Source of the DNA: a bacterium
Lineage (GTDB): Bacteria > Patescibacteriota > Patescibacteriia > HK-STAS-PATE-3
DNA length: 64,000 nt
Reading direction: 5' to 3'
Assembly: GCA_043800725.1 (NCBI GenBank)
Contig: JAZDMR010000011.1
Coordinates: 85,369-149,368, forward strand
This document shows positions 15,646-60,000 of this stretch, piece by piece. Below the pieces are notes generated by a model. The model worked only from the letters and a program-made list of their open reading frames with translations, searched no databases and was not told where the DNA came from. A program made the translations under genes and the position numbers. Numbering within the stretch: the first letter of the stretch is position 1; the number at the start of each line of letters is the position of its first letter.

Positions 15646-15939
15646 ATGTCAATTAAATTAAATCCAATTCGTGTAATAAAGAATGATGATAGGGGGATAA
15701 TTTATGATTGCGGAGAATCGAAGTTTATTGCCCGAGAGAAAGATACGATTTCTGCTGATCATAGTCATCCAGATCCAGAAGTATGCTATTTAGTGAAAGG
15801 TGAAATTGAGCTTACAATTGGTGATGAAACCCAGGTTGTCAAAGCCCCAGTCAGGTTTGAATCAGGTCCTAATGAATATCATAAGTTAGTTGCTCTGACT
15901 GATATTGAGTTGGTGATTGAACGTAAGGGAGAAGTATAG
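15646..15939 (+). CDS. small cupin-fold protein, putative
   Basis: 97 aa; ...ADHSHPDPEVCYLVKGEIELTIGDET... resembles a cupin_2 metal-site/beta-barrel motif. Confidence 0.4.
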   Translation: MSIKLNPIRVIKNDDRGIIYDCGESKFIAREKDTISADHSHPDPEVCYLVKGEIELTIGDETQVVKAPVRFESGPNEYHKLVALTDIELVIERKGEV

Positions 15940-15983
15940 TGAAGTTAGGGGATCATGTGGTAAGATTGGCCATAAAGAAATAA

Positions 15984-16072
15984 GCACATTCACAGCAAAA
16001 TAAGCTTGGGGGATGTTTATATGTTCACAGTTCAGACTATTTGACGTATAGTTTTTCACCTGAACAAGGAGG
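15984..16072 (+). repeat. ~89-bp leader repeat R1 copy A (second copy at 19855-19941), upstream of paralog A
   Basis: gcacattcacagcaaaataagcttgggggatg...cagactatttgacgta.agtttttcacctgaacaaggagg is shared by both copies; contains a possible promoter and the RBS. Confidence 0.8.
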
Positions 16073-16587
16073 CAAGAAATGGAATGTTTCACCTACCCGA
16101 TAGTAGGCGGAGACACTGATCCAGAGAAATGGACAAAGGCATTGGTGTCGCCAATAGTCCTTGGTAAGGGTCATCCGCCAATGGTTTTACAGACATTGGT
16201 TTCACTCACAGTGCTTGGGCAAAGGATATTTCCAGGATCATATCCCTTGGTTCCCGTACCGAAAACTGATCCGCCAAATGCTGAAGACGCCACCCATCAC
16301 GAGATCGAGATTGAAGTCGGCGAACTTATGCGCGTCAGTGGTCCGAGTGAAGAAGCGCCTAAAATCGCACTGGGGCTCCGATTTAGAGGGGTGGTCAGTA
16401 CCGAAGCAGCCACAAAGCTCCTACCCCCAGATGCCCCAAAGATTGGGGGTCCGTATGTCTGTGTTTGGGGCGTATTCACTTTTGGAGGAGAGGGCACGCA
16501 AATCATTCACTTCGAAACATAATTAGGAGGGGACGAACGCGAACACCGGGGAAGACAAATCTTCCCCATCCCCCAAGCTTATTTTGC
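15995..16587. repeat. cassette A bounded by perfect 20-bp inverted repeats (gcaaaataagcttgggggat at 15995-16014; atcccccaagcttattttgc at 16568-16587)
   Basis: The IRs enclose the leader, the 147-aa paralog gene and a ggggaagac..tcttcccc hairpin (16548-16567). Confidence 0.8.
16079..16522 (+). CDS. hypothetical protein, paralog A (147 aa) of 19948..20412
   Basis: Motifs shared with paralog B: IGG, KAL.SP.V, SLTV, H.I.I.V.EL, GPSE, LRF.G, VCVWGV.T.G; own RBS aaggagg. Confidence 0.5.
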   Translation: MECFTYPIVGGDTDPEKWTKALVSPIVLGKGHPPMVLQTLVSLTVLGQRIFPGSYPLVPVPKTDPPNAEDATHHEIEIEVGELMRVSGPSEEAPKIALGLRFRGVVSTEAATKLLPPDAPKIGGPYVCVWGVFTFGGEGTQIIHFET

Positions 16588-16607
16588 ATTAATGCTATTA
16601 TCAGCAC

Positions 16608-16673
16608 ATGTCCCAAACAGCTGAAACACAAGCCATCATCTTAGGGCGCCGGTCCATGAAAGAGTATGATCGG
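16608..16673 (+). pseudogene. duplicated recO 5' end (ATG + first ~22 codons), fused in frame to unrelated sequence (track ORF 16608..16859)
   Basis: 64-66 nt are ~85% identical to recO 21642-21707 (MSQTAETQAIILGRRSMKEYDR vs MSLTTETQAIILERRSMKEYDR), then diverge exactly where the R4 repeat begins. Confidence 0.6.
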
Positions 16674-16736
16674 ACAACAGCGTATATATGCTATCCAGAC
16701 CTCACGTCGGGACGGCGCACGATACGCCGAAACGTT
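16674..16736. repeat. ~61-63 bp direct repeat R4 copy 1 (second copy at 19316-19376)
   Basis: acaacagcgtatata..ctatcc.gac.tcacgtcgggacggcgcacgatacgc(cg)aaacgtt; the two copies bracket the precursor-rSAM-methyltransferase module. Confidence 0.8.
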
Positions 16737-16912
16737 GAGCTTGACAAAATGGAGGGAGTAGTAATACGATTAAAAATTAGATCTTTTACAAAAAACTACA
16801 AGTCCTATTTATTTTGTTGCTCTTTTGGGTCAATAAAGTTAAATGAAAATTCATCATGAATTTTCAACCCAGGCGGTAATAAAAGATTATAGGCAAGAAA
16901 GGAGAAAAACCC

Positions 16913-17032
16913 ATGAAGAACTCCAAGGTCGTGCAGCAAACCCCTAAGGTTTCGCTGAAAGCAACCAAGGTCAATGTCCGGAAGACCGGCATGAACTCTG
17001 GCATCACGGGCGGCGGCTACCAATGTTGCTGA
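16913..17032 (+). CDS. candidate RiPP precursor peptide, 39 aa: MKNSKVVQQTPKVSLKATKVNVRKTGMNSGITGGGYQCC (absent from the ORF track because it is shorter than 60 aa)
   Basis: AGGAG RBS 8 nt upstream of the ATG; Lys-rich leader-like N-part and Gly-rich C-terminus ending in Cys-Cys; stop 15 nt before a stable hairpin and 75 nt before the rSAM/SPASM gene. Confidence 0.55.
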   Translation: MKNSKVVQQTPKVSLKATKVNVRKTGMNSGITGGGYQCC

Positions 17033-17046
17033 ACCGATGAACCGAC

Positions 17047-17080
17047 GTGGCATATAACGGCTCCGGTCGCTATATGCCAC
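17047..17080 (+). promoter_or_regulatory. perfect 10-bp-stem hairpin (gtggcatata...tatatgccac) between precursor and maturase genes; putative attenuator / processing site
   Basis: Inverted repeat seen directly. It also creates the artefactual GTG start of track ORF 17047 and the antisense ORF ending at 17080. Confidence 0.5.
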
Positions 17081-17106
17081 GCCATTTTTCTTTACAGGAG
17101 GAAGTC

Positions 17107-18453
17107 ATGTCTCAAACGTATGTGCAGTTGACCGAACGTGCGATCTTTAAATCCCGCTATTATAAATGGTATCTCATTGATACCTCGCGGCGAGAGCGGG
17201 AACGCATCCTCATTGAGGGCGGTGCTGAACGGGTTTTACTTTTTCTCTTTGAAGGAAACACAATTGAGGTGGCGTGTGCTAGATTCGGGCTTGGGCGTGA
17301 CGATTTAGAGGAGTTCCTAAGGAATCTTCAAAACGAAAACGTTATCGCCATGAGCAATATCCCCGTAGTCTCAGCGACAAAGTGTCATGAAATCGAACCA
17401 CCGCTTGATAGTGTCAATGTGTTACTTACCAATACCTGCAACCTCCGGTGCGCACACTGCTACGTTTCTAGTGGAAAACCGATGACTGGTGAGCTTGATG
17501 GGGGTACCTGGATCAGAGTCTTACAGGAAGCAAGACGACTTGGAGTTTTCGAGCTTAATGTCTCAGGTGGTGAGCCGACATTGCATAGCGATTTTGTGAG
17601 AATTGCTGAATACATTGCGTCCGTGCCCACTTTCAATGCTAACCTAAATACCAATGGGGTATTACTGTGTCCCGAACACGAAGATGTAATAGCACGCGCC
17701 TTCACAAGTATTCAGGTAAGCCTCGACGATGCGGTGGCGGAAAAACACGATGCTTTCCGTGGATGCAAAGGTAGCTTCAGACGATCAATTGAAACAATCT
17801 CACGGCTCGTCGCTCGCGAGGCAGAGGTAAACATTGGTTTTACACTGACTCGCGAGAATCTCAACGCACTCAATGGGGTGGTTGAGCTCGCTGAACAGCT
17901 TGGTGCTACGGTTCTTAACATTGGGCTCGTGGCTAACATCGGGAGAGCAAACATTAATGCGCTTGTTCAGCCGATAGGCCCTTCTTCGGTACCCGAGGAT
18001 TCTTTTATAGAGCGAATGTATGAAAAGATGAAAGAGCTTGCTGTGCGATCCTTACGTGTGCGACTACTTTTACCTTTCCGGGTTCCAGGTAATGATGCTT
18101 TAATAGAACCACGAGAAAAGCGTTTTATCTGCGATGGTGATAACACTCAAATCCTTTACATCATGGCTAATGGAAGCACGATGCCATGTGACAAGTTACC
18201 AATCGAATCCTTCTCGTACGGTAACATTAAGGAGCACTCACTCCTAGATTTGTGGACATCACAACGGATGCAGGCGTTCAAACTAATGGGTTTGCGGCAG
18301 CTACCCAAATGCCGTGACTGTCATTATCTTGATATCTGTGGGGGTGCATGTGTGGCACGCGCATACCAAATGGGCGGATCACTTAAGTCTCCCGACTGGA
18401 CTTCATGCATGATTGCACAAAAGTTCTCTCAAGACAACACGGCGCAGGAGTAA
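17107..18453 (+). CDS. radical SAM/SPASM-domain peptide maturase with N-terminal PqqD-like RRE
   Basis: CNLRCAHCY (CxxxCxxC) rSAM motif. C-terminal Cys cluster ...CDGDN...CDKLP...CRDCHYLDICGGACVARAY (SPASM). N-terminal ...TIEVACARFGLGRDDLEEFLRNLQNENVI resembles a PqqD/RRE peptide-binding domain. Start moved to the ATG at 17107, which has an AGGAGG RBS. Confidence 0.85.
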   Translation: MSQTYVQLTERAIFKSRYYKWYLIDTSRRERERILIEGGAERVLLFLFEGNTIEVACARFGLGRDDLEEFLRNLQNENVIAMSNIPVVSATKCHEIEPPLDSVNVLLTNTCNLRCAHCYVSSGKPMTGELDGGTWIRVLQEARRLGVFELNVSGGEPTLHSDFVRIAEYIASVPTFNANLNTNGVLLCPEHEDVIARAFTSIQVSLDDAVAEKHDAFRGCKGSFRRSIETISRLVAREAEVNIGFTLTRENLNALNGVVELAEQLGATVLNIGLVANIGRANINALVQPIGPSSVPEDSFIERMYEKMKELAVRSLRVRLLLPFRVPGNDALIEPREKRFICDGDNTQILYIMANGSTMPCDKLPIESFSYGNIKEHSLLDLWTSQRMQAFKLMGLRQLPKCRDCHYLDICGGACVARAYQMGGSLKSPDWTSCMIAQKFSQDNTAQE

Positions 18454-18514
18454 TAATACATCACTCCTGCGCCTTTTTATTTGTGTTATAATGATTTAAA
18501 ATAACTTTAAAAGT

Positions 18515-19273
18515 ATGAAAAAACAACATTGGTGGAAAACAGCATTTAGCGAAACGTATCTCGCTGCGTTTAATGATATATATTCAGTACAGCGAGGAGA
18601 GAAAGAGGTGACGTTTCTTATTCGGGCGCTACGAATGAAGAAAGGTGCCCATATTCTTGATCTTGCTTGTGGGCAAGGCAGACACGCTATTCCACTTGCA
18701 CAACGTGGGATGCAGGTGACTGGTGTGGACGCCTCGGCATCTTTACTGCACGCGGCAAGGCAACGAGCGCGAACAGCGAGAGTGAGTGTATCTTTTGTGA
18801 GAGGAGATATGCGTACTTATCACAATGCCAAGAAGTACGATGCGGTACTCGTTCTCGGCAATTCATTCGGTTATTTTAATGATAAAGATAATAAAAGAGT
18901 GTTGTCTAACATTGCCACTTCCCTGAAAACTGGTGGTTGGCTTGTGTTAGATCTTTCAAATACGCCCGGTATGCTCCGACGGCAGGTTACTGGCGAATGG
19001 ACACAAAGGATTCCGAACGGAAAGTTAACAACACGCACGCTTAACTTTAATCCGGAAACGTTTCAGATAACATTACAATGGTGCATTTGGCAACATAAAA
19101 GAAAAACTTCATTCGATGGTATGTTGCGTTTGTATACGCCGCCAGAAATAAATCATCTGCTTATCGAACGAAATCTGATTCTTAAAAAGTCCTATGATTC
19201 CTTTGAAAATAAACCATTTAATATAAAATCAAGTCGTTATTTAATAGTTGCACAAAAAAATAGTCCCAAATAG
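18515..19273 (+). CDS. class I SAM-dependent methyltransferase
   Basis: ILDLACGQGRHAIPLAQRGMQVTGVDAS (motif I GxGxG) ... AVLVLGNSFGY (motif II region). Confidence 0.8.
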   Translation: MKKQHWWKTAFSETYLAAFNDIYSVQRGEKEVTFLIRALRMKKGAHILDLACGQGRHAIPLAQRGMQVTGVDASASLLHAARQRARTARVSVSFVRGDMRTYHNAKKYDAVLVLGNSFGYFNDKDNKRVLSNIATSLKTGGWLVLDLSNTPGMLRRQVTGEWTQRIPNGKLTTRTLNFNPETFQITLQWCIWQHKRKTSFDGMLRLYTPPEINHLLIERNLILKKSYDSFENKPFNIKSSRYLIVAQKNSPK

Positions 19274-19315
19274 TTATCCTGACGAAGGCAGGACAAAAGC
19301 TTTTAATTACATCTA

Positions 19316-19376
19316 ACAACAGCGTATATACACTATCCCGACTTCACGTCGGGACGGCGCACGATACGCAAACGTT
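19316..19376. repeat. direct repeat R4 copy 2 (see 16674-16736)
   Basis: ~95% identical to copy 1; lies between the methyltransferase and NUDIX genes. Confidence 0.8.
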
Positions 19377-19397
19377 ATCTGTAAAATTCTAAAATCT

Positions 19398-19796
19398 ATG
19401 GTTAAAATACGAGCGAATGTGCTGATAAAAGACCAGGAAAAAATTTTACTGATGCATAGAATAAAGAATGGTGCTGAATATTTTGTGTTGCCAGGCGGCA
19501 GCGTTGAATCAGGCGAAAGTATAATAGATGCAGCTATCCGTGAAGCAAAGGAAGAAACGGGGTTGGATGTGTCGATAGACAAAGAACTTTGGCAATTCCA
19601 CAATGATATGGATAGTAGAGATCATTACATTTTCCTTGTCACAAAATATTCTGGTAAATTAAAACTTGGCGGTCCTGAAATAGATAAAGTATCAGAGGTA
19701 AACAAATACTTACTTGAATGGCATGATTTGAGTAAACTAAAGGACGTAAAATTATTTCCAGTGGAAGTTAAAAAGAAAGTACTAGAGATCTTTTAA
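19398..19796 (+). CDS. NUDIX hydrolase
   Basis: GGSVESGESIIDAAIREAKEETGL is a canonical Nudix box (Gx5Ex7REUxEExGU). Confidence 0.8.
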   Translation: MVKIRANVLIKDQEKILLMHRIKNGAEYFVLPGGSVESGESIIDAAIREAKEETGLDVSIDKELWQFHNDMDSRDHYIFLVTKYSGKLKLGGPEIDKVSEVNKYLLEWHDLSKLKDVKLFPVEVKKKVLEIF

Positions 19797-19854
19797 GCTG
19801 AAATAAAAAAGCATCTGTTGGCATTTGGTAAATAAAACCTTAAAATAAACAAAG

Positions 19855-19941
19855 GCACATTCACAGCAAAATAAGCTTGGGGGATGTACATAAATACGGC
19901 CCAGACTATTTGACGTACAGTTTTTCACCTGAACAAGGAGG
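19855..19941 (+). repeat. leader repeat R1 copy B (see 15984-16072)
   Basis: ~90% identical to copy A, including the IR element and the RBS. Confidence 0.8.
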
Positions 19942-20462
19942 GAAGGAATGCCGCGCTATACGTACAATGTAATAGGAGGAAGTACAGCGTTTGAAGAATG
20001 GGCTAAGGCACTGAAGTCGCCAGTAGTTGATAATACTGGTGATTCACCCAGTATTGTGACTACCTTTGCTTCACTTACGGTAAGCAGTCGGCGGATTTTT
20101 CTGACAGGCGCTACAATGCGATTGTCGAAACGGCCGCCTGAACCCCCAGACCTCAAAGATGCGCTTACTCATAAGATCAAGATTGACGTTCTTGAACTGC
20201 AGAAATGCGAAGGGCCGAGTGAAGCCGAGCCGACCAAACCGTTGATGCTGAGGTTTGGTGGCCGGCTAGATACCAAAGCGGCTTTAGCAGTCATAGATCC
20301 TGAAAAGCCGGAAATTAGTGCTCCGGATGTCTGCGTCTGGGGCGTGGTTACCCTGGGCAACAAAGGGTGCCAGGGAATCATCCATATCGACCCAGAAACA
20401 CAAGAGTCATAGTTCAACCTCGGGGAAGACATTTTCTTCCCCATCCCCCAAGCTTATTTTGC
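19866..20462. repeat. cassette B bounded by the same perfect 20-bp inverted repeats (19866-19885 and 20443-20462)
   Basis: Same architecture as cassette A, including the ggggaagac..tcttcccc hairpin at 20422-20442. Confidence 0.8.
19948..20412 (+). CDS. hypothetical protein, paralog B (154 aa) of 16079..16522
   Basis: See paralog A; roughly 35-40% identity by eye, with collinear motifs. Confidence 0.5.
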   Translation: MPRYTYNVIGGSTAFEEWAKALKSPVVDNTGDSPSIVTTFASLTVSSRRIFLTGATMRLSKRPPEPPDLKDALTHKIKIDVLELQKCEGPSEAEPTKPLMLRFGGRLDTKAALAVIDPEKPEISAPDVCVWGVVTLGNKGCQGIIHIDPETQES

Positions 20463-20551
20463 TTACAAAAAAGTGGGGGAGGCTCGGTGTCCTCCCCCGT
20501 GAGTGAGGATTCGGGCAAATGCCCATCATTGTGACTGAGAATTCATCCGAA

Positions 20552-20580
20552 ACGACTTGTGCGGGATTCGAACCCGCACT
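20552..20580 (-). other. tRNA-like T-arm/acceptor fragment (GCGGG-TTCGAAT-CCCGC) without a complete tRNA; possible att-site remnant
   Basis: Canonical T-stem-loop on the minus strand; no D or anticodon arm could be folded from the flanking sequence. Confidence 0.25.
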
Positions 20581-20700
20581 GACTACCGAGATGTCAACAG
20601 CCAGTAAAGTCTGTCACACTCAGTTCGAGCCTATTCCAAACCGAAATATATGTCAATATTTGGGTATTTTCATAATAGTGCTATATTCAAAATCCAATGC

Positions 20701-20722
20701 CCCAGACAGCTGAAACACGAGC
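20701..20722 (+). repeat. third, partial copy of the recO 5' segment (cccagacagctgaaacacgagc)
   Basis: Matches recO 21645-21670 and the copy at 16611-16640 with 2-3 mismatches. Confidence 0.6.
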
Positions 20723-20940
20723 TAAAATTACTATGGGAGTATTTGGGTACCTTTTTAAAGTAGGGAAGTGGTTGACAATCGATAAGACAATTGATGAATA
20801 CTATATGACAATTTAGTTTACAATTACAAATAAGTACTTGACAATTAATTCCTACGGAATGAGTAGATGGGATTACATAACTTCAATGACTTTTGTTTCA
20901 CAATAGATATGCCCTATATCCCACAGCTGAAATCAAGAAT

Positions 20941-21240
20941 ATGAAAATCCAAATAAGCAGTGATATAGAAAAGTTTATCTCAACCCTTGAAAAACCAACC
21001 ATTGCGAAAATTTTTCGAACTGTTGATTTACTTGAAATATTTGGTAATCGACTTGGAATGCCACACAGTAAAAAGGTAAAAGGGGGGATTTTTGAGCTTC
21101 GTATTCGCGGCCAACAGGAAGTTCGTATTCTCTATACCTTTCAAAAAAGAGAAATTGTCTTACTACATGGGTTTATTAAGAAATCTCAGAAAACCCCAAA
21201 GCGTGAAATTAAATTAGCTATTAAAAAACTACAAAACTGA
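20941..21240 (+). CDS. RelE/ParE-superfamily toxin of the phage Gp49/HigB-like group
   Basis: ...GGIFELRIRGQQEVRILYTFQKREIVLLHGFIKKSQKTPKREI... matches the Gp49-like/HigB pattern; the start may be the upstream ATG at 20893 instead. Confidence 0.6.
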   Translation: MKIQISSDIEKFISTLEKPTIAKIFRTVDLLEIFGNRLGMPHSKKVKGGIFELRIRGQQEVRILYTFQKREIVLLHGFIKKSQKTPKREIKLAIKKLQN

Positions 21241-21326
21241 CATAATATAATATCTCTTGACATAATATAACATATACGTTATATTTATAATAATTACTAT
21301 AAGGTTATATAAACGAGATAAAACCT

Positions 21327-21611
21327 ATGAAATCCTATAAAACTCTAAAAAGCCAATTACTCAAAGATAAGGGAATCAAAAAAGCCTATGATGAATTAGG
21401 ACCTGAGTTTGAATTGGTGCAACTGGTTATTAAAAAGCGTCTTGAACAAGGGCTAACGCAGGCAGAGCTGGCAAAAAAGATTGGTACTAAACAGGCAGCG
21501 ATTTCCCGTCTGGAGAGCGGTACGTCAAATCCCACAGTGTCTTTTTTACAAAAGGTGGCAGAAGCATTAGGTACGCGACTAAATATTTCAATTTCTACAT
21601 CTCCTCAATAA
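21327..21611 (+). CDS. XRE-family HTH antitoxin (HigA-like)
   Basis: ...GLTQAELAKKIGTKQAAISRLESG... helix-turn-helix; lies immediately downstream of the toxin. Confidence 0.65.
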   Translation: MKSYKTLKSQLLKDKGIKKAYDELGPEFELVQLVIKKRLEQGLTQAELAKKIGTKQAAISRLESGTSNPTVSFLQKVAEALGTRLNISISTSPQ

Positions 21612-21641
21612 TCTGAATGTCTGAAATAAAGATACAAGTAT

Positions 21642-22394
21642 TTGTCCCTGACCACTGAAACACAAGCTATCATCCTAGAACGCCGGTCCATGAAAGAGTA
21701 TGATCGGCGGGTTGTGGTATTTACCAAGAACTTTGGCCGGTTGGATTTGATCGCCAAAGGCACTTTGCGATTGGCTAGTAAGTTGGCCGGGTCGCTGGAG
21801 CCTTTAACAGAGACTAATCTTAATATCGCGCGCGGTAGATTTGATCGAGTTATAGGATCGGTTACTCGTGAGGCCTGGCCCAGACTGCATAATGATTTAG
21901 AAGCATTAGCGGCAGCCAGCTTCTTGGCTCAAGTGACTAGTCAGCTGGCTCAGAAAGAAAGTCCTGATCCGGCTATTTATAATCAGCTGCAATTCAGCTT
22001 AGCTCAGCTTAATGAAATTCCCAGTGACCAGTTTACAATAATTGTCAGGCGGTATTTATGGCAGCTGTTTGATCACTTAGGATTCAAGCCGCAGCTTTCT
22101 AAGTGCGTGCGCTGTGGGAAAAGCGAATCTATTAAATATACTTATGTTTCAGAAGCTGGCGGGGCAGTTTGCGAGCAGTGCCAGACGGCGGGCAGTAAGG
22201 GGATTGCCTTGACAGCCAATACGGTTGAGGCTTTAAACAGCTTGCTTAATAATAAGACAGACGCTACTCCGGCGAACAAGACTACAGACAGAACCATTGC
22301 TCAAATAATTGATCAAACGTTGCTAATACATACTCAGAAGCATTTGCCTACCGATTCCTTTTGGCGCAGCATCAACAGGTTTATAAATCAATAA
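21642..22394 (+). CDS. recO: DNA repair protein RecO (TTG start)
   Basis: N-terminal OB-fold region plus zinc finger CVRCGKS...CEQC; 250 aa. Confidence 0.85.
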   Translation: MSLTTETQAIILERRSMKEYDRRVVVFTKNFGRLDLIAKGTLRLASKLAGSLEPLTETNLNIARGRFDRVIGSVTREAWPRLHNDLEALAAASFLAQVTSQLAQKESPDPAIYNQLQFSLAQLNEIPSDQFTIIVRRYLWQLFDHLGFKPQLSKCVRCGKSESIKYTYVSEAGGAVCEQCQTAGSKGIALTANTVEALNSLLNNKTDATPANKTTDRTIAQIIDQTLLIHTQKHLPTDSFWRSINRFINQ

Positions 22395-29779: not shown

Positions 29780-29875
29780 CTGCGGCAAGGTGGATATTAT
29801 TTATTAATATCGTTGGTTTGATTCAACTATAAATTAGGTTAGATTGCGCCCGCCCCTGCCATCCTTTCGGATGGC

Positions 29876-30028
29876 AGAGTATATTAGATGCGGCTCGAAC
29901 CTATTTTGAAAAGAATTCCTGATTTCTGGGGCGGGACGGAATTCCCCCCAGACCCCCTTTCCGCCCCGCCCGTCGGAGCCTGTTCTGAATTTTATTCTGG
30001 GATTTCTCTTTTTCGCTGGGATGTTTCG
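29876..30028. repeat. left arm of ~153-bp terminal inverted repeat (partner at 33414-33567)
   Basis: Reverse complement of 33414-33567 matches with 3-4 mismatches (agagtatattagatgcggctcgaacctattttgaaaagaattcctgatttctggggcgggacggaattcccccc...). Confidence 0.85.
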
Positions 30029-30174
30029 TATCCCGCTACTGCGAGATGCGCCGCCTGATAAGGGAGCGATTGCCCCACCCTCCCGTGCACGCGCTCATTG
30101 CTCCCTGAAAGAGAATACCCTAATTTGGGTTAAACTACTTTAGACTATATCATAAAGGCAAAGGAATCACCACC

Positions 30175-30627: not shown

Positions 30628-31242
30628 ATGGGAACCCCCATGACCACATCCACGATGACCGAAGGTCAGATAAACCGGGCGTGCGAGATCTTCCGCGCCC
30701 AGCTCACGAGGCGCGCTTCCGAGCTTTCCTCGGACGCGGTACAGGAGGCGTTCGGCGATCCCGCGCTTGGCTCCGACTGGTTCGCCGTTCTGCAGAAGCG
30801 CGTCGATCTCATCGGCAGCACTTTCACGGCCACCGTCAACTATGACGATCCGCAGTGGCGGACCATCGAAAGGAGCCGCTACGCCAACATGAGCGACGTG
30901 AAGCCCAAGGACTACCCGGTCGGCGGGAAGGGCTCGAAGCCAATCAAATACCGCCTCCTGGAGTTCGACCACGATCCGCTCGACGACGAGGTGCTGGCCA
31001 AGATGGCGGAGATGAACTGCCGCCAGCCCGACCGTGCCGAGTCCGAGACGATCATTCGTAGCTTCACTGCCGAGGAGCTTCGGGCGCATCCAGTCATCGG
31101 TCTCATCGGCCCTGCCGTGAAGCGCAATGGCAACCTCCTTCGCGCCTACGTCGATGGCTACGAGAACGGCGTGAACCTCGTCTGGAGCTGGACCGGCAAA
31201 CGCTGGAGTCGGTACTGCCACTTCGTGGCCGTCTGCAAGTAG
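30628..31242 (+). CDS. DGR target (variable) protein, 204 aa, GC-rich; C-terminal variable region of C-type-lectin/FGE-like type
   Basis: C-terminal 133 nt (VR) pairs with the downstream TR; ends ...GYENGVNLVWSWTGKRWSRYCHFVAVCK; no signal peptide; AGGAGG RBS. Confidence 0.75.
   Translation: MGTPMTTSTMTEGQINRACEIFRAQLTRRASELSSDAVQEAFGDPALGSDWFAVLQKRVDLIGSTFTATVNYDDPQWRTIERSRYANMSDVKPKDYPVGGKGSKPIKYRLLEFDHDPLDDEVLAKMAEMNCRQPDRAESETIIRSFTAEELRAHPVIGLIGPAVKRNGNLLRAYVDGYENGVNLVWSWTGKRWSRYCHFVAVCK
31108..31240 (+). repeat. DGR variable repeat (VR)
   Basis: 133 nt aligned to the TR: 11 mismatches, every one at a TR adenine. Confidence 0.85.
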
Positions 31243-31609
31243 AACTTGTTCTCTGGGATCCTGGGAACTTCTGTTCCCTTGGGCCCTTGCATATCGACCC
31301 GCTTCAAATTTCTGGCTTCGGCTGGAAATGCGAGGCGGGTCTTCTTCATTTCAAAAAAATCTGATATACTCTTTACGGAAAGTAAATGACACTGCTCGCG
31401 GCCACGGTTGCGAGCGATTGAACTCTAGTACGTCGAGACGACCGGAATATCCATGACTACGGTTATGGGTAGCGCGTCCCTCACGATTCTTCGGAAACGG
31501 AGATTTACTTGGTGCGGCATATCAGGCGGAGTATAAGGCTCCCGAATGAAATACAGCCCAGAGAGTATTCAATGGGCGGTGGAACAGACGGTATGCTGTA
31601 CAATGTGAC

Positions 31610-31742
31610 GGCCCTGCCGTGAAGCGCAATGGCAACCTCAATCGCGCCTACGTCAATGGCAACGAGAACGGCGTGAACCTCAACTGGAACTGGACCGACA
31701 AACGCTGGAATCAGAACTGCCACTTCGTGGCCGTCTGCAAGT
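31610..31742 (+). repeat. DGR template repeat (TR)
   Basis: Non-coding copy rich in AAC/AAT codons; the VR differs at AAT->CTT, AAT->GAT, AAC->TAC, AAC->GTC, AAC->AGC, GAC->GGC, AAT->AGT, CAG->CGG, AAC->TAC. Confidence 0.85.
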
Positions 31743-31763
31743 TTCTTCGGCTCCTCTCCCTTG

Positions 31764-32111
31764 TCAGGGCAGGGGAGCTTCCGTTTGCAATTGTTTTTTC
31801 CAGCCGCCGAGCATCTTCCCGACTTCAGCTAATGGTTCGGAAATTCGCGCATAGTGTTTTGTATCGAGCGCCTTCAATTCCCACGTAATTTGCAGAAAAT
31901 ATTTGAGCGCATCGAGTTTCGTGCACGCACGTAACACAATTGCTAATTTCATTTCTCGTGATGAGTATCCGGCATGCAAGATCAACTCAACCGTTTCAAT
32001 GAATAACGCATCAATCTTTGCTCCAAGTGTGTATCGCGTCAATCTTGGAATGTGCGGCAATAACCCATGCCAGACCTTATATGCGTCTGAAGCTTTTTGT
32101 AGCACAGGCAA
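31764..32111 (-). CDS. avd: accessory variability determinant (Avd), four-helix-bundle family
   Basis: ...LLPHIPRLTRYTLGAKIDALFIETVELILHAGYSSRE...ISEPLAEVGKMLGGWKKQ is collinear with Bordetella phage bAvd (...PIAQSIPRKHGVAREMFLKCLLGQVELFIVAGKSNQ...LIAEVGRILGSWI...). It is encoded on the strand opposite to the target, TR and RT. Confidence 0.7.
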   Translation of the reverse strand: MPVLQKASDAYKVWHGLLPHIPRLTRYTLGAKIDALFIETVELILHAGYSSREMKLAIVLRACTKLDALKYFLQITWELKALDTKHYARISEPLAEVGKMLGGWKKQLQTEAPLP

Positions 32112-32160
32112 ATTGCCGAAAGCGTTGGGGGGGGGGCGACTTAATTGCTTTCTGCGTACT

Positions 32161-33168
32161 ATGAATATTCAACTGCGTCATACGTATCAGGAAATTATTG
32201 GGTTAGAAAATTTGCTGGCGGCGTGGGAGGAGTTCCGGTTAGGTAAGCGCGACAAACCGGATGTCCAGGCATTTGTCCGCCACCTCCTGGATAACATTGT
32301 ACAGCTTCATGAGGATTTAGCCAACTTTACCTATCGGCACGGCGGGTACAAAGCGTTCGCCATCAACGACCCGAAGCCGCGACAAATCCACAAAGCCAGC
32401 GTGCGTGATCGGTTATTGCACCACGTCATCTATCGCATTTTGTATCCATTCTTTGACCGCACGTTTATTGCTGACTCGTTTTCCTGCCGGGTGGATAAGG
32501 GCACATTGAATGCGATAGAAAGGTTTCAAACATTTGGCTACCAAGTCAGCCGCAATAATACGCGCACGTGCTGGGTATTGAAATGCGATATTCGGAAATT
32601 CTTTGCAAATATCAATCATGGTATTCTGTTACAAGTTCTTGCAAGGTATCTACCTGACCAAAATATCCTGTGGTTGCTGGAAAATGTAATCGACAGTTTT
32701 GACACGAAACCGGGTGTCGGCTTGTCGCTGGGTAATCTCACGTCACAGTTGTTCGTGAATGTCTACATGAACGAATTTGACCAATTTGTGAAACAAAAGA
32801 TGAGGTGGAAACACTACATTCGGTATGCTGACGATTTTGCATTTCTCTCGGATGATCGAACAGTGCTTGCGGCAATGCTTCCTATGGTTGATGATTATTT
32901 GGTGGCAACATTACAGCTCCAACTTCATCCCGACAAGGTGTTTATCAAGACCCTTGCCTCCGGCGTGGATTTTCTCGGCTGGGTGCATTTCTTAAACCAT
33001 CGGGTATTGCGAACCACGGCACGGTGGCGAATGATGGCGCGAATCAAAGAACACGGCACGCCGGAAACGGTGCAATCGTATTTAGGTTTATTACAGCATG
33101 GCAATACGTACAGACTCGAACAGGAAGTGCGGAATGCCGAATGGTTGTGGTATAATGATAACAATTAA
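32161..33168 (+). CDS. DGR reverse transcriptase
   Basis: RT motifs: IHKASVRDRLLHHV..., ...YIRYADDFAF (YxDD box), ...GVDFLGW...; start set to the ATG at 32161 (MNIQLRH), giving ~335 aa. Track ORF 31903 would overlap avd and runs through a G10 tract. Confidence 0.85.
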   Translation: MNIQLRHTYQEIIGLENLLAAWEEFRLGKRDKPDVQAFVRHLLDNIVQLHEDLANFTYRHGGYKAFAINDPKPRQIHKASVRDRLLHHVIYRILYPFFDRTFIADSFSCRVDKGTLNAIERFQTFGYQVSRNNTRTCWVLKCDIRKFFANINHGILLQVLARYLPDQNILWLLENVIDSFDTKPGVGLSLGNLTSQLFVNVYMNEFDQFVKQKMRWKHYIRYADDFAFLSDDRTVLAAMLPMVDDYLVATLQLQLHPDKVFIKTLASGVDFLGWVHFLNHRVLRTTARWRMMARIKEHGTPETVQSYLGLLQHGNTYRLEQEVRNAEWLWYNDNN

Positions 33169-33413: not shown

Positions 33414-33567
33414 ACGAAACATCCCAGCGAAAAAGAGAAATCCTAGAATAAAATTCAGAACAGGCTCCGACGGGCGGGGCGGAAGGGTGGTCTGGGGGGA
33501 ATTCCGTCCCGCCCCAGAAATCAGGAATTCTTTTCAAAATAGGTTCGAGCCGCATCTAATATACTCT
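33414..33567. repeat. right arm of the ~153-bp inverted repeat (partner at 29876-30028)
   Basis: See left arm. Confidence 0.85.
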
Positions 33568-33768
33568 CCCTAAAACTCCCCTCCTAATAATTGGAGGGGT
33601 TGGTGGTGGGGCGGGCTTTCAGCTATAGTTAGATATTAATTTGACCACTTGACCACTTGAATACTTATTTGTATAGTAATTATTGAAGGCAAGAATATTT
33701 GGAATGCCTTCTGTGACAGTGTTCTTTTCAAATGTGTGTAACCTTCGTTTCTCCATGGAGGAATCGAT

Positions 33769-43410: not shown

Positions 43411-43766
43411 AGTATGAACTCGTAATACTTTTTGTCTTTACTTTTTATAAAAAATGCGCTATACTATATTCTTCCGGTGATAAACCGGATATTTTGTACC
43501 TTAATATTTTGAAAGGAGGAACCTAAGTCTTACATTGCACCTTACTAAAAATTCTTCATCATCCAAATCACAAAACAAAAATCACAACATAAATAATAAT
43601 AATGAATACATGCGCATGTTCACTGACCTGCGTCGTGTTCTCGATGATTTAAAGCGCGCCATGGAGTCAGACAAGTAATTTAATTGACAGAGGGGTTTTC
43701 GATTGATAGGGTGGGCTTAGATCATCGATCATCGAAAACCTAGGGAAATTAAGGAGGGATATCCAG

Positions 43767-44195
43767 ATGAAAATCACTGGTTGGTTTCTGATAATTGCTA
43801 TGTTGTTGGTCGTTGTTCCAAGCCTGGTGCAGGCAGAGCCACCACTTTTGGTGCCGTTTGAGGTCGGCCCTGACTTCGGTGTTTTTGATGGCTACCTGAC
43901 ACTTAGATCGGTAATATTACAGCTAACGCGACCAGCCTATACCGGGCTAATTCTGGAAGAAATGGAGCGGCTGGGATATTTTCCCGCTACCTGGAAATTC
44001 TGGTCTGTCTGGCGCTGGCCGATGGGGGACAACATTACCAATCAGTATCCGATTATTGCTTTTATAGGCTTTCGGGAGGGCGATGAACTTGAAACCTGGG
44101 AGTTATACCATTCCCAATACCATCGTTGCTTTATAGAGTATTGGGACCCAGCAGTTAACCCGCATATGTTTCAGGTGTATGTGGAGGTAAAATAA
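43767..44195 (+). CDS. secreted hypothetical protein, tandem paralog 1
   Basis: Signal peptide MKITGWFLIIAMLLVVVPSLVQAE; shares QLTRPAY.GLI.EE.E.LG and the promoter/RBS region with the next gene. Confidence 0.5.
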   Translation: MKITGWFLIIAMLLVVVPSLVQAEPPLLVPFEVGPDFGVFDGYLTLRSVILQLTRPAYTGLILEEMERLGYFPATWKFWSVWRWPMGDNITNQYPIIAFIGFREGDELETWELYHSQYHRCFIEYWDPAVNPHMFQVYVEVK

Positions 44196-44366
44196 TTGCC
44201 AACCTGAAGTAAAATACTTCAATCACGCCCTACCACCCCTAACCCATCCTAATAAAGGAAGGGAACTGAGGGAGGTAGGGCGTTTACATAATTGACAGCC
44301 TAGACATCGATTGATAGAGTGGGCCTAGATCGTTGAAAACCTAGGTAAAAAAGGAGGGATATCCAA

Positions 44367-44837
44367 ATGAAAACGACTGGTTGGTTTTTGGTACTCGCTA
44401 TTCTAATGGGAACAGTGCCCAGCTTGGTTCAGGCTGAGTCTTTACTGGTGTATGTGCAGACGGACATTACTTTCAAGGTGGATGACTGCCTGACGGTTCA
44501 GCCGATGGTTGTCCAGCTTACTCGGCCGGCTTATATGGGCCTGATCTGGGAGGAGATCGAGAAGCTGGGTGAGTTGGGTGTCTGGATCACTGGCGGACAG
44601 GTCGAATTGGCTGACCAGAAGGTTTTTGATGCCTGGACCTATTTTTCGTTTGGTCAGGCAGTTACTGATCATTATCCAGTCTATGCTGGGGCATATGTTG
44701 ACCAGCTTGGTCAGCATTTCTACCAGCTTCATCGAGCGCGCTACTCAACAAGTTTCTACCGGGAATTCTGGGATACCCGGGTCTATGGACCGATCTACTT
44801 CCTGGTCTACAAGAAGGTCGAAGGTCCGCCATTGTAA
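44367..44837 (+). CDS. secreted hypothetical protein, tandem paralog 2
   Basis: Signal peptide MKTTGWFLVLAILMGTVPSLVQAE; duplicated upstream ~70-bp leader. Confidence 0.5.
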   Translation: MKTTGWFLVLAILMGTVPSLVQAESLLVYVQTDITFKVDDCLTVQPMVVQLTRPAYMGLIWEEIEKLGELGVWITGGQVELADQKVFDAWTYFSFGQAVTDHYPVYAGAYVDQLGQHFYQLHRARYSTSFYREFWDTRVYGPIYFLVYKKVEGPPL

Positions 44838-44982
44838 CAATAATCTCAAAAGATTCGAATAACCCCATTTCGTTTAATACGAGGTGGGGTGTTTTGCTAT
44901 ATCCAAAATTAGCCTTCGACCTAAGTGGAGAAGCCTGATGTTCTTTGTAAGCTGTAATTAGGTTCTCGACCGTGCTCGAACA

Positions 44983-57029: not shown

Positions 57030-60000
57030 ATGAATTATCTAACACAATCAGATCAAGTGCTTAATCAAAAAACCAGACAAAGAATATTTAAGCTTTTAAG
57101 TATATTAATATTACCCGCCATGGTCTTTCAGATGAGCGGTTTTGGCTTTGTCTTAACTGCCAATGCTGCTCAAGCAGCTGAATTGACCGAGCCAGTGGAA
57201 AAGCCTACTGAAGTAGTTGACCAGGTTGTTACAGGTCTTAAGGCAGCTAATCCTGCTGCCGACCTGGACCAGTGTAAAAATGGCGGTGTAGGTGATCCTC
57301 CCATCAGTCCTTGTGACTGGGTTAACGGTAATTTGAATGAACAGCATGCCCATTATGTTGAGGGTGATTCTGTGCCTTATCGGATGACTTTGACTGATAT
57401 TTCAGTTGGTGCGCCACATGAGTTAATTATTGGCTTTGATGTAAAGCACTCTGGCAAGCATGCGCTCGACTATTTAACTAACAATGACCGAATTGCTGAA
57501 GTGGTCGATCCTTGTGATGGTGTTACTCCTTGTGTTCCTGGTACAGCTGGCGATATTCCTTCACCTACAGACCTGATTGGTAGCGCAAGCTTTGCCAACT
57601 TAGAGGTTGCTGAAGGTAACCAACAGATTAAGATCTGGAATGGTGCTATCAGCTCTATTACATATGTAGACGAAGGTGATTTGACTCAAGATAATTCAGA
57701 AGCTCAAGTAAGTATTATTTTTACGGTGACCGACCCTACAGCTGTTATTTCTTGGGGTGGGCATATTGCTAGCCGGCTTGATTGGGGCTATGAACTAGGT
57801 GGTGAGCCAAAATCAGCTGGCGGTATCAATGGTTCCCCTTATCACATGCGCAATAAAGACCTGGATGGCTCTGGCGGTAACCAAGACCGTTCTCTATCTG
57901 CTAGTGCGGTTCTACCACCCGAACCGGGAGCTTTAATGTTGACCAAAGTTGTTGATAGTGGATCGGCCAGCCCGGATGCGTTTACTTTTGAAATTAATCC
58001 AGATCCAAACACAGAAGGTCAAGTAAATACTACCAACGGAACCCATGTCTTCAATGACTTGGACGCTGGTTTTTACACGGTGACTGAATTACCGTTCCCT
58101 GGTTATGAATTAGTTTCTACAACTTGTGATGACGTAGAGGTGGTAGCTGGTGAGTTAGCCCAATGTGAAATCCATAATGCCGTAGAAGTCGGCGATTTGG
58201 AAATTATAAAATACTTTGATAATCAGGCCAACGGTATTCTTAACACTTATGATGATTATCTGTCCGGCTGGCATTTTGTGGTGAAGGATGCGACAGGTCA
58301 GGTAGTAGCTGAAGAAGATACTGATGGCAATGGGCAAATTATGGTCAATAATCTCTTGACAGGCGACTACACCATCACTGAAACAATGCAGGATGGTTGG
58401 GAAAACACCACCGGCGGTCTGGTTCAGCAAGCTACGGTTGTTGCAGATGACACTGTTACAGTTGAGTTTGGTAACCGACGCTTACCAGCCGGCCTACATG
58501 AACTATTTAATATCTATGGTACCTGCTCTGATGAGTCTGGTAATGCCGTGGTGGCTGCTGGTGTGGGCATGCTGGACACTGATACTGGCACGATTAATAA
58601 TTTTAATATTCCAGGCCCGGTAACTGCTGCCTATCTCTTCTGGAGTGGGCGTGATAATAGTAATGGCCCTGGTGATCCCAACATTACCTTTGATGGACAT
58701 CCAGTAGTTGGCGTGGAATCCCGCGAAGGCTGGGATCCGATTGGTTATTATGCTGATGTAACCAGCCTGGTTTCACCAGGAGTCAAAAACTACACAATTG
58801 CCGGTCTAGACCTGGATCTCAATGACGGAGCTGGTTTACATGTGATTTACCAAGATGCTGCCCTTGATCCCGCAGGTGTTACCCTGTTCGGTGGACTGGA
58901 CTTTGCCTATCGTGGCACACCCTATAATCCGGTTGGACCTGATACGGAAGTGTATGGAATTACTTTTAGTCCTGCCCAAGTGGATCGAACAGCACACTTA
59001 ATTCTGAGTGTTGGCGGTGGTGACCATATTCATCCAAATCGAGGCGATAATCTTTGGATTCAAACTGGTACCGGAGCCATCCCTGGTTATTTGGTTGACC
59101 AGCCTGGCGCTATAGAGCAAATCTCAAATATGCTGACCGCTTCTGATGGACCTGAATTTGATACACCGAGTACTGATATTGTTATTCCAGCTAATGCGAC
59201 TTACCTAGCTTTCCAAATTGAATCGGAAGGCAATGATGGCGAAAGTTTGAGCTTGCTAGCAGCCAGTTTCTCAGTACCAGAATTTTGCCCTGGTAAGATC
59301 TCTGGCTATAAATGGAATGATACCAATGGTAATGGTAACTGGGATATTAGTGAATCTGCCTTATCTGGCTGGACTATCAATCTGTGGAATGATCGAGCTG
59401 GTCAACCTGGTATAATCATAGATACAGACGTGACTGATGCAAATGGTTACTACGAGTTTGCTGATTTACTACCTGGTGCTTACTGGGTAAATGAAGTATT
59501 GCAAGCTGGCTGGATCCAAACTTCCTTGCCAGTCACCTATGGTCCGCTGGTGATCACTCTTAATGAAAATTATACCCGTAATGACTTTGGTAACTTTGAG
59601 TTAGGCGAGATTCATGGCACCAAGTTCGAAGACATTACGGCCAATGGCCCATCCGGCGACGATACGACGATACCGGGCATTACAATTAACTTGTATAAAA
59701 ACGGTCAACTATATGATACTGATGTAACTGATGGTAGTGGTAACTTCTCATTTGTTGACCTTGGTCCGGGTAATTATACTTTTGATGAAGTATTGCCCCC
59801 AGGCTGGTACATGACTTACTCACCAGGTCTTATCGTTATGACCTCTGGATTGGTTAGCCAAGACAATGACTTTGGTAATTTCCAGCTAGGTGAGATTCAC
59901 GGTACTAAATATGATGACAAAACTGCTAATGGTCCATCTGGTGATGATACTCCAGTCAGCGGCATCATGATCAAGCTTTGGAAGGATGGTCAGTTCTATG

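Follow-up and report, generated by a model that had tools for sequence, protein, structure and literature searches.

The 64,000-nt stretch of DNA analysed here (the window; contig JAZDMR010000011.1, from a bacterium of the Patescibacteriota) carries two cassettes, in each of which a gene for an orphan protein of about 150 amino acids (aa) is enclosed by perfect inverted repeats (IR; left arm IR-L, right arm IR-R). What defines them is a pair of complementary segments, one upstream and one downstream of a single open reading frame (ORF), both outside the translated region. We propose, with somewhat less than even confidence, that each cassette is a conserved frame of untranslated regions (UTRs) whose 5' and 3' ends pair, predicted to serve as an end-clamp of the mRNA, as a substrate of RNase III or as a split terminator. 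The structure is seen in a single uncultured bacterial lineage only. The parts of the two cassettes, in window positions, are the following.

15984..15994, + strand: 11-nt block GCACATTCACA adjoining IR-L of cassette 1 on its left, conserved and identical at 19855-19865
15995..16015, + strand: IR-L of cassette 1 (GCAAAATAAGCTTGGGGGATG), the 5' arm of the proposed clamp
16033..16078, + strand: leader box of cassette 1, with a Shine-Dalgarno sequence AAGGAGG at 16066-16072
16079..16522, + strand: paralog 1, 147 aa, an acidic and soluble orphan protein
16548..16567, + strand: 8-bp G+C-rich hairpin of cassette 1, GGGGAAGA-CAAA-TCTTCCCC
16567..16587, + strand: IR-R of cassette 1 (CATCCCCCAAGCTTATTTTGC), the 3' arm of the proposed clamp, with a U-rich run at its end
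19855..19886, + strand: 11-nt block and IR-L of cassette 2, with a promoter-like site just upstream
19902..19947, + strand: leader box of cassette 2, with Shine-Dalgarno sequence
19948..20412, + strand: paralog 2, 154 aa, 44% identical to paralog 1
20422..20442, + strand: 8-bp hairpin of cassette 2, GGGGAAGA-CATTT-TCTTCCCC, with the same stems as in cassette 1 and a different loop
20442..20462, + strand: IR-R of cassette 2, which carries an IS66-like insertion sequence (IS) in a sister strain at NCBI

The 21-mer arm occurs in four exact copies forming two inverted pairs, and each pair holds, in the same order, a leader with a ribosome-binding site, the ORF of about 150 aa and the 8-bp hairpin. 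This arrangement had been described in an earlier note made from the letters alone (here, the original prediction), and window-wide matching bears it out. When the 20-mer GCAAAATAAGCTTGGGGGAT was searched with up to three mismatches allowed, the window returned four matches, all of them exact (15995-16014 on the + strand, 16568-16587 on the - strand, 19866-19885 on the + strand and 20443-20462 on the - strand), against a chance expectation of 0.01 matches in the shuffled window; four matches were reached in 0/100 shuffles. The arms are 100% complementary over 21 nt in cassette 1 (21/21) and 22 nt in cassette 2 (22/22), and they are separated by 551 and 555 nt, respectively. Besides these two, no gene-bracketing perfect inverted pair of at least 14 nt was found in the window. 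The layout of the repeat is AAAATAA-GCTTGGGGGATG ... CATCCCCCAAGC-TTATTTT, so that an arm reads as an A-tract, a 12-bp G+C-rich stem and a U-tract. IR-L ends 63 nt before the ATG, while on the other side the hairpin abuts IR-R, its last C doubling as the first base of that arm.

Comparison of the two cassettes revealed that their flanks are a mosaic of nearly invariant blocks and diverged patches. The 33-nt 5' block is identical throughout (15984-16016 versus 19855-19887; 33/33), the leader box, which ends in AAGGAGG placed 6 nt before the ATG, matches at 39/40 positions (16033-16072 versus 19902-19941; 43/46 when the start region is included), and the hairpin stems with IR-R match at 37/37, the last 28 nt of this tail being identical and the hairpin differing in its loop only. 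Taken together, the conserved blocks are 113/116 identical. Between them lie a patch from IR-L to the leader box (16017-16032) that differs at about 10 positions and by a 2-nt indel, the hairpin loop (CAAA versus CATTT) and the spacer from stop codon to hairpin (25 nt in cassette 1 versus 9 nt in cassette 2); these patches differ between the cassettes as much as the ORFs do. The original prediction had taken the IR as the boundary of the repeat, which does not hold, as the identity overruns IR-L by 11 nt (GCACATTCACA); further left, weaker similarity continues for about 30 nt more and decays (CAT-TGGTAA ... CC-TAA). In contrast, its idea of a conserved cis-acting frame around a diverged coding region stands, with the 5' block including IR-L, the Shine-Dalgarno leader box, the hairpin stems and IR-R as the elements. 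Duplicated DNA at the same locus provides a neutral comparison: a fragment of the recO gene is 88% identical to its source and two copies of a palindromic repeat (D10) are about 90-92% identical, together 111/124. The conserved blocks are thus more alike than clearly non-functional duplicated DNA of the locus. Judged from two copies, the mosaic of blocks and patches resembles the phylogenetic footprint of separate functional elements more than it does one recent conversion tract.

The enclosed genes appear to have a different history. The two proteins, whose collinearity had been noted before, align end to end with an identity of 44% (E = 9e-40), slightly above the 35-40% estimated before, and all gaps between the genes are in-frame. 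Identity of the coding nucleotides is 55%, and 53/71/41% at the three codon positions, so the earlier observation that the proteins diverged far more than their flanks is confirmed by the contrast between third positions (41%) and the conserved blocks. A codon-wise comparison gave proportions of nonsynonymous and synonymous differences (pN and pS) of 0.37 and 0.71, corresponding to dN of about 0.50, a saturated dS of about 2.1 and dN/dS of about 0.24; the same codon is used at 26/65 conserved residues. Because of this low dN/dS, the saturated dS and the low codon sharing, the ORFs are best read as true protein-coding paralogs under purifying selection that separated anciently. Their G+C content at third codon positions (GC3) is 0.46-0.48, compared with 0.47 +/- 0.04 for the housekeeping genes of the window and with markedly lower values (0.27-0.36) for the cupin, Nudix, methyltransferase and toxin-antitoxin genes nearby; this contrast makes the paralogs look like long-term residents and several of their neighbours like imports. 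On these comparisons, a near-invariant frame around saturated cargo indicates that flanks and ORFs have had different histories. As for the possibility of a simple segmental duplication, named in the original prediction as an outcome that would undo the cassette idea, the IR pair does occur at these two places only, as far as the data reach, but a simple duplication fails on age, the duplicated DNA alongside being much younger than the coding regions.

Both proteins are acidic and soluble, with no hydrophobic or membrane segment and no signal peptide. Consistent with the earlier statement that they belong to no recognisable family, searches of Pfam, NCBIfam, PADLOC and PHROGs and a PDB profile search gave nothing credible for the paralogs. 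A lone PDB match to an alpha/beta hydrolase (E = 0.038 over 60 residues) was treated as noise. A word-index search of 5.8 billion clusters returned the query itself only, and an exhaustive HMMER search with a two-paralog profile over 1.84 billion representatives (15 billion proteins) returned just both paralogs; tblastn against phage and plasmid collections gave no match. AlphaFold2, run on the two-row alignment, yielded an unusable model (pLDDT 41, pTM 0.34).

The repeat itself is equally restricted. The exact 20-mer GCAAAATAAGCTTGGGGGAT is absent from IMG/VR, has one match in GTDB genomes (single-copy and unpaired, in one metagenome-assembled genome, MAG) and occurs in JGI metagenomes at one unpaired intergenic site, upstream of an unrelated ORF, in four soil contigs of the same locus. 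By our estimate, such unpaired matches are at about chance level for a 20-mer at that database size. The paired arrangement was found in none of the viral, GTDB-genome and JGI-metagenome collections, so the searchable data hold no family of such cassettes with other cargo. The suggestion that the frame carries diversified cargo is not supported: the two cargos are homologous, and there is no third one in the collections searched.

According to the proposed mechanism, each cassette would be the transcription unit of a lineage-restricted orphan gene with conserved cis-elements in its untranslated ends. At the far ends of the two UTRs, segments of 21 nt that complement each other exactly would form a 21-bp helix, with the 8-bp 3' hairpin stacked on it, and the resulting clamp would close the whole mRNA while the ribosome-binding site and the ORF stay inside the loop. 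Such a clamp could hide both RNA ends from exonucleases. About 21 bp of duplex is long enough for a possible RNase III site, and cleavage of the clamp might excise the gene from read-through transcripts. Finally, a G+C-rich core followed by UUAUUUU would have the layout of an intrinsic terminator with the gene as its loop.

Several predictions agree with this proposal. In both cassettes the clamp stem closes the mRNA in the minimum free energy fold and in the centroid fold (z -5.4 and -5.7), and the duplex taken by itself has a free energy of -36.8 kcal/mol. The 21 pairs form with a mean probability of 0.95, a value that holds when the transcript start is moved from the conserved block to a point 25 nt before it or into the upstream gene. 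Since neither arm reaches into the ORF, translation could proceed with the clamp intact. A consensus scan detected no terminator-like site between the upstream genes and IR-L and no other + strand terminator after the right arm of either gene, and it placed a promoter-like sequence at 19818-19846 (TTGGCA-17-TAAAAT), shortly before cassette 2. The alternation of conserved blocks with diverged patches also favours the clamp, being what selection on separate elements would produce. The proposal supposes that IR-L is probably co-transcribed with the ORF, that the arms would pair in vivo as they do in the folding model, and that this pairing may control stability, processing or termination; it further supposes that purifying selection, and not gene conversion, would be what keeps the blocks identical.

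Other observations weigh against a clamp. A second promoter-like site lies within cassette 1 (TTCACA-17-TATAGT, 16024-16052) and would yield an mRNA lacking IR-L. Arms and hairpin stems do not vary from one copy to the other, and with one lineage and two copies covariation speaks neither for nor against pairing; zero G-U or compensatory changes are seen in 29 bp of each of the two cassettes despite saturated synonymous sites. An RNA helix requires neither 21/21 identity nor the same sequence in both paralogs, and to judge from the sequences the invariance is explained less well by structure alone than by sequence-specific recognition or concerted evolution. In addition, a hairpin with a 550-nt loop is a kinetically poor terminator. 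Because no G-U or compensatory change is seen in 29 bp, explanations of the repeats as recombination sites, or as relics whose identity is maintained by conversion, stay alive. A search of Rfam over 15900-21700 gave no match even at E <= 1.

Natural messages with pairing ends offer a basis to place this proposal. In icaR of S. aureus, pairing between the two UTRs, 3' and 5', creates an RNase III substrate (PMC3868564), and in hbs of B. subtilis a 14-bp interaction that joins the 5' UTR to the 3' UTR modulates RNase cleavage by shielding cleavage sites (PMC5737220). The cassettes share with both the presence of complementary segments in the two UTRs of one message, the pairing being predicted in our case, and with icaR a C-rich 3' arm (UCUUCCCC-AUCCCCC). 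They differ in that the predicted helix is perfect and 21 bp long rather than 14 bp or a 7-nt motif, in that it lies at the extreme ends with the Shine-Dalgarno sequence uncovered and a stacked hairpin alongside, and in that the same helix sequence occurs twice, around two paralogs of ancient divergence. Long helices of a similar kind are known from rRNA operons, in whose stalks inverted repeats flanking the gene product pair and RNase III releases the unit. The repeats of the cassettes likewise flank a whole gene product and could bring its ends together; unlike those stalks, they enclose protein-coding genes instead of stable RNA and are conserved in one lineage only.

The explanations that compete with the clamp have to be weighed against the architecture of the locus. 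The locus runs from ileS and a cupin gene through cassette 1, 20 nt, a recO 5' fragment (66 nt) and D10a to a promoter-like site, followed by genes for a precursor peptide, a radical SAM (rSAM)/SPASM enzyme and a methyltransferase, then D10b, a Nudix gene and cassette 2, and finally 234 nt, a second recO 5' fragment (26 nt), a Gp49/HTH toxin-antitoxin pair and the resident recO. The precursor, rSAM and methyltransferase genes make up a module for a ribosomally synthesized and post-translationally modified peptide (RiPP). The earlier description of the cassettes as flanking this module is right, but incomplete, since a recO 5' fragment, two palindromes of about 60-75 nt and the Nudix gene also lie between them. 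The repeated features of the locus are these.

16608..16673, + strand: recO 5' fragment 1, the first 22 codons with an ATG start, 88% identical to the resident recO
16674..16735, no strand assigned: palindromic repeat D10, copy a, starting exactly where the recO homology ends, upstream of the RiPP promoter
19316..19375, no strand assigned: copy b of palindromic repeat D10, following the methyltransferase gene; the - strand gives a fold of -40 kcal/mol (z -7.8)
20697..20722, + strand: recO 5' fragment 2, 26 nt with an ATG start, 234 nt after cassette 2
21642..22394, + strand: resident recO, with a TTG start, the source of the repeated 5' sequence

The first 26-66 nt of recO are thus present three times (16608-16673, 20697-20722 and 21642-21707), which looks like serial insertion of an island (the toxin-antitoxin pair, then the RiPP/Nudix segment) with no integrase remaining. 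Fragments 1 and 2 share derived bases (ATG, A8, A12, G13) relative to the resident gene. In fragment 1, the same codon is kept at 15/18 conserved residues, and a sister organism from a sibling sample (SRR26275509) shows about 83% DNA identity across the HTH-recO region; the fragments are therefore young, at about the level of sister-species divergence. Because a recO 5' fragment follows each cassette (that of cassette 1 begins 20 nt after it), the two cassettes can be regarded as positional homologues within a rearranged island, each preceding a recO 5' end. On the simplest reading of the sequence, this clade would natively have the cassette gene next to recO, on its upstream side, and two old versions of that gene would later have been put in tandem, as might happen when island DNA (RiPP module, Nudix and toxin-antitoxin genes) is built into the recO 5' region. 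Such a tandem arrangement differs from what is expected for independent transposition of an IR-bounded element.

Some further observations concern this region. Copies a and b of D10 are direct copies of an imperfect palindrome that bracket the precursor-rSAM-methyltransferase module; their arrangement recalls the subterminal hairpins of IS200/IS605-type elements, no transposase of this type being present. The 234-nt stretch past cassette 2 contains a minus-strand terminator and a tRNA-like T-arm. More specifically, the minus strand of 20465-20640 may encode a small RNA or a tRNA remnant; its T-arm (GTGCGGGTTCGAATCCCGCAC) is perfect, one stem resembles an acceptor stem, another hairpin is present, and a strong intrinsic terminator ends 3 nt from cassette 2. 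Neither ARAGORN nor Rfam called this candidate. Immediately before recO, 20893-21611 codes for a Gp49/HigB-like toxin and an HTH antitoxin, and the antitoxin-recO adjacency is kept in the SRR26275509 sister organism (recO 84% identical in amino acids; contig L016).

An explanation that keeps a real, if minor, share of the probability is that the inverted repeats have no present function. The arms would then descend from an old bidirectional terminator, one half each, whose loop had taken up the ancestral gene, or the cassettes would be ancient alleles upstream of recO placed in tandem, and the identity of the flanks would be maintained by gene conversion or homologous exchange between short homology blocks and not by selection. 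The succession of A-tract, G+C-rich stem and T-tract matches other terminators in the window, the non-functional duplicated DNA next to the cassettes is young (by the identities of recO fragment and palindrome, and the 15/18 codons) while the ORFs are saturated, and both cassettes lie upstream of recO fragments with shared derived bases, all of which suits this view. Against it, the conserved blocks (113/116) exceed even the young neutral repeats (111/124), and old diverged patches interrupt them, whereas a conversion tract would be expected to carry along the loop between the identical 8-nt stems. The homology blocks, moreover, are just 33-45 nt long, which is near the lower limit for efficient recombination.

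We consider it unlikely that the four 21-mers are targets of a site-specific recombinase forming a shufflon- or inverton-like switch. Such an enzyme would flip the 0.6-kb cassettes, so that the gene is turned off relative to an outside promoter, or flip the 3.3-kb segment between IR-R of cassette 1 and IR-L of cassette 2, or delete or exchange segments. The perfect identity of the four copies without compensatory drift is as expected for a site recognised by a protein, and the 11 identical nucleotides and the promoter-like site outside IR-L mean that inversion would uncouple the gene. IR-R of cassette 1 and IR-L of cassette 2 do form an inverted pair around the RiPP segment, and the length and spacing of the arms are within the range of described invertons (PMC11602134; bioRxiv 10.1101/2023.03.11.532203). 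Like the invertons portrayed there, the cassettes have a short IR pair spaced by a few hundred bp and a possible promoter outside; unlike those, they hold a whole gene and not a promoter or part of a gene. We scanned most window ORFs of at least 100 aa, together with the precomputed gene tables of the matching NCBI contigs, for recombinases and transposases, and Phage_integrase, Resolvase and Recombinase gave no match, that is, no tyrosine or serine recombinase; the only DNA-transaction proteins seen in the window were RmuC, RecO and the reverse transcriptase of a diversity-generating retroelement (DGR). The window, two NCBI contigs and a Logan contig all have one orientation. The Logan contig, which starts exactly at the first k-mer that separates cassette 1 from cassette 2, is unbranched through IR-R of cassette 1; this and the uniform orientation speak weakly against a sizeable inverted sub-population. 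Lastly, the 21-mer does not have the dyad-symmetric half-site layout of typical recombinase cores, its central AAGCTT aside, and inversion leaves the conserved hairpin stacked on IR-R unexplained. The first suggestion of invertase-recognised repeats is not supported by the ORFs scanned and the assemblies compared.

A variant which we regard as quite doubtful treats the 21-bp arms, the hairpin and the leader as a recombination-competent socket upstream of recO, into which hyper-divergent alleles of an orphan gene might be swapped, duplicated or switched. If true, it would explain how a young or invariant frame comes to hold saturated cargo, and it would amount to a new allele-cassette system with no recognisable recombinase nearby.

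Very improbable, in our view, is a non-autonomous transposon, either a mobile insertion cassette (MIC) or a miniature inverted-repeat transposable element (MITE) with cargo, whose 21-bp terminal inverted repeats are mobilised in trans. In agreement with the definition of MICs (PMC3913671, PMC4337579), perfect IRs of terminal type surround a single non-transposase passenger gene in a unit of about 0.6 kb, and the locus is a mosaic island with IS polymorphism. Unlike such elements, neither copy is flanked by direct repeats that could be target-site duplications (TTCACA|...|ATTAAT for cassette 1; TTCACA|...|TTACAA for cassette 2), and conservation extends past the left repeat, with 11 nt identical and about 40 nt similar outside IR-L. 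The relative position, upstream of a recO 5' fragment, is shared by both copies. They are just two in number, with homologous genes of ancient divergence, no dispersed copies were found in the window, and the viral, GTDB and JGI collections hold no element with these ends. No transposase or cognate IS was found among the window ORFs scanned, and the MITE-like label in the original prediction is not upheld. What a genuine insertion at this locus looks like is shown by an internal control. The NCBI MAG GCA_043827125.1, which is 99.95-99.99% identical to the window, has a 1091-nt IS66-like IS inside IR-R of cassette 2 (positions 1171-2261 of its contig L008; window 20453-20461). This element has 24-bp perfect terminal repeats (GGCATAAGGTACAAAAACGTAGGC) unrelated to the cassette IR, a 9-bp target duplication (CTTATTTTG, 20453-20461) and a gene for a 247-aa DDE protein; it is absent from the window, which holds no other copy of it.

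Other element types were set aside. In REPtrons, genes for RAYT proteins (IS200-like Y1 transposases of about 150-180 aa) are flanked by inverted REP hairpins. The cassettes resemble them in having a gene of about 150 aa between inverted repeats with an adjoining hairpin; in contrast to REPtrons, the paralogs have no Pfam or NCBIfam match to Y1_Tnp and no conserved His-x-His (HUH) motif in their alignment, where one His is conserved, and the repeat is not dispersed in the window. An integron cassette was rejected, as there is no attC, no integrase was found among the window ORFs scanned, the 3' structure is a 20-nt hairpin only and the IR spans the gene. Retron and DGR-target readings were rejected as well: the cassettes have no reverse transcriptase beside them and do not resemble the template repeat of the window's DGR.

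The least credible idea, which we give only a very slim chance, is that the paralogs are immunity or self-protection partners of the rSAM-modified peptide and that the frame co-regulates them with the RiPP module; the paralogs do bracket the module and are otherwise without assigned function, but the same module occurs in other contigs of the candidate phyla radiation (CPR) without a paralog homologue or the IR, the paralogs are soluble and lack membrane segments or signal peptides, their GC3 is genome-like while methyltransferase, Nudix and toxin-antitoxin genes look foreign, and the recO fragment and the palindrome separate cassette 1 from the module. The module (16913-19273) consists of a 39-aa precursor (..GITGGGYQCC), an N-terminally extended rSAM/SPASM maturase and a methyltransferase, for which the top NCBIfam match is a daptide-type model below its cut-off; no NCBIfam equivalog reached its cut-off for the module. 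About 50 homologues of the rSAM enzyme are roughly 40-80% identical to it, those with names being from CPR bacteria. Six fetched contigs (L010-L015) representing three distinct loci carry the module, with precursors 68-78% and rSAM enzymes 51-70% identical to those of the window. The methyltransferase gene follows the rSAM gene wherever the contig reaches that far, and the neighbourhoods are otherwise unrelated. The paralogs had no tblastn match in any of the six, nor was the IR or the D10 palindrome found there. As these loci keep the module without the paralogs, the three-gene module appears portable and the paralogs not part of it, and the immunity suggestion is not supported. Mobility of the module via the D10 palindromes was likewise rejected, since related modules elsewhere have no flanking repeats. 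The module was found in contigs of Buchananbacteria, Paceibacterota and Microgenomates, and precursor, rSAM enzyme and methyltransferase may, on their sequences, represent an undescribed RiPP class of CPR bacteria.

With regard to the assemblies of this segment, the NCBI and Logan contigs that contain cassette 1 both end at 17353, inside the rSAM gene, and the next NCBI contig starts at 19292; the full rSAM protein and the methyltransferase have no record in the protein collection. There are no repeats at the contig breaks (17353 and 19292), which may reflect heterogeneous strains or a RiPP module poorly covered in that sample.

Three other features of the window were observed. A canonical DGR lies at 30628-33168, with a variable repeat (VR) at 31107-31240, a template repeat (TR) at 31609-31742 and an RVT_1 reverse transcriptase at 31903-33168; the repeats are 134 nt long, TR and VR differ at 11 positions, all of them template adenines, and the matching NCBI contig has an annotated bAvd gene. 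An unusual trait is the 157-nt inverted repeat of 97% identity that brackets the whole element (29873-30029 / 33414-33570). At 43744-44838 there are two tandem paralogous small genes (142 and 156 aa) that share a 95-nt block of 75% identity spanning the ribosome-binding site and a signal-peptide-like N-terminus; the 142-aa product, which was scanned, has no Pfam match. Finally, 57030-62516 is an ORF of 1828 aa with at least five tandem repeat units of about 285-312 nt (59.2-61.2 kb), probably a repetitive surface protein.

In conclusion, if the clamp proposal is true, the cassettes would represent the most extreme natural end-to-end pairing of a bacterial mRNA, a perfect 21-bp helix around a whole message, and the first such case in the CPR. 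The frame is compact and portable (about 95 nt on the 5' side and 40 nt on the 3' side), and it could possibly be reused as a module to stabilise or insulate mRNAs. The contrast between frame and coding region is a clean small example of non-coding footprints that outlast the gene they serve.

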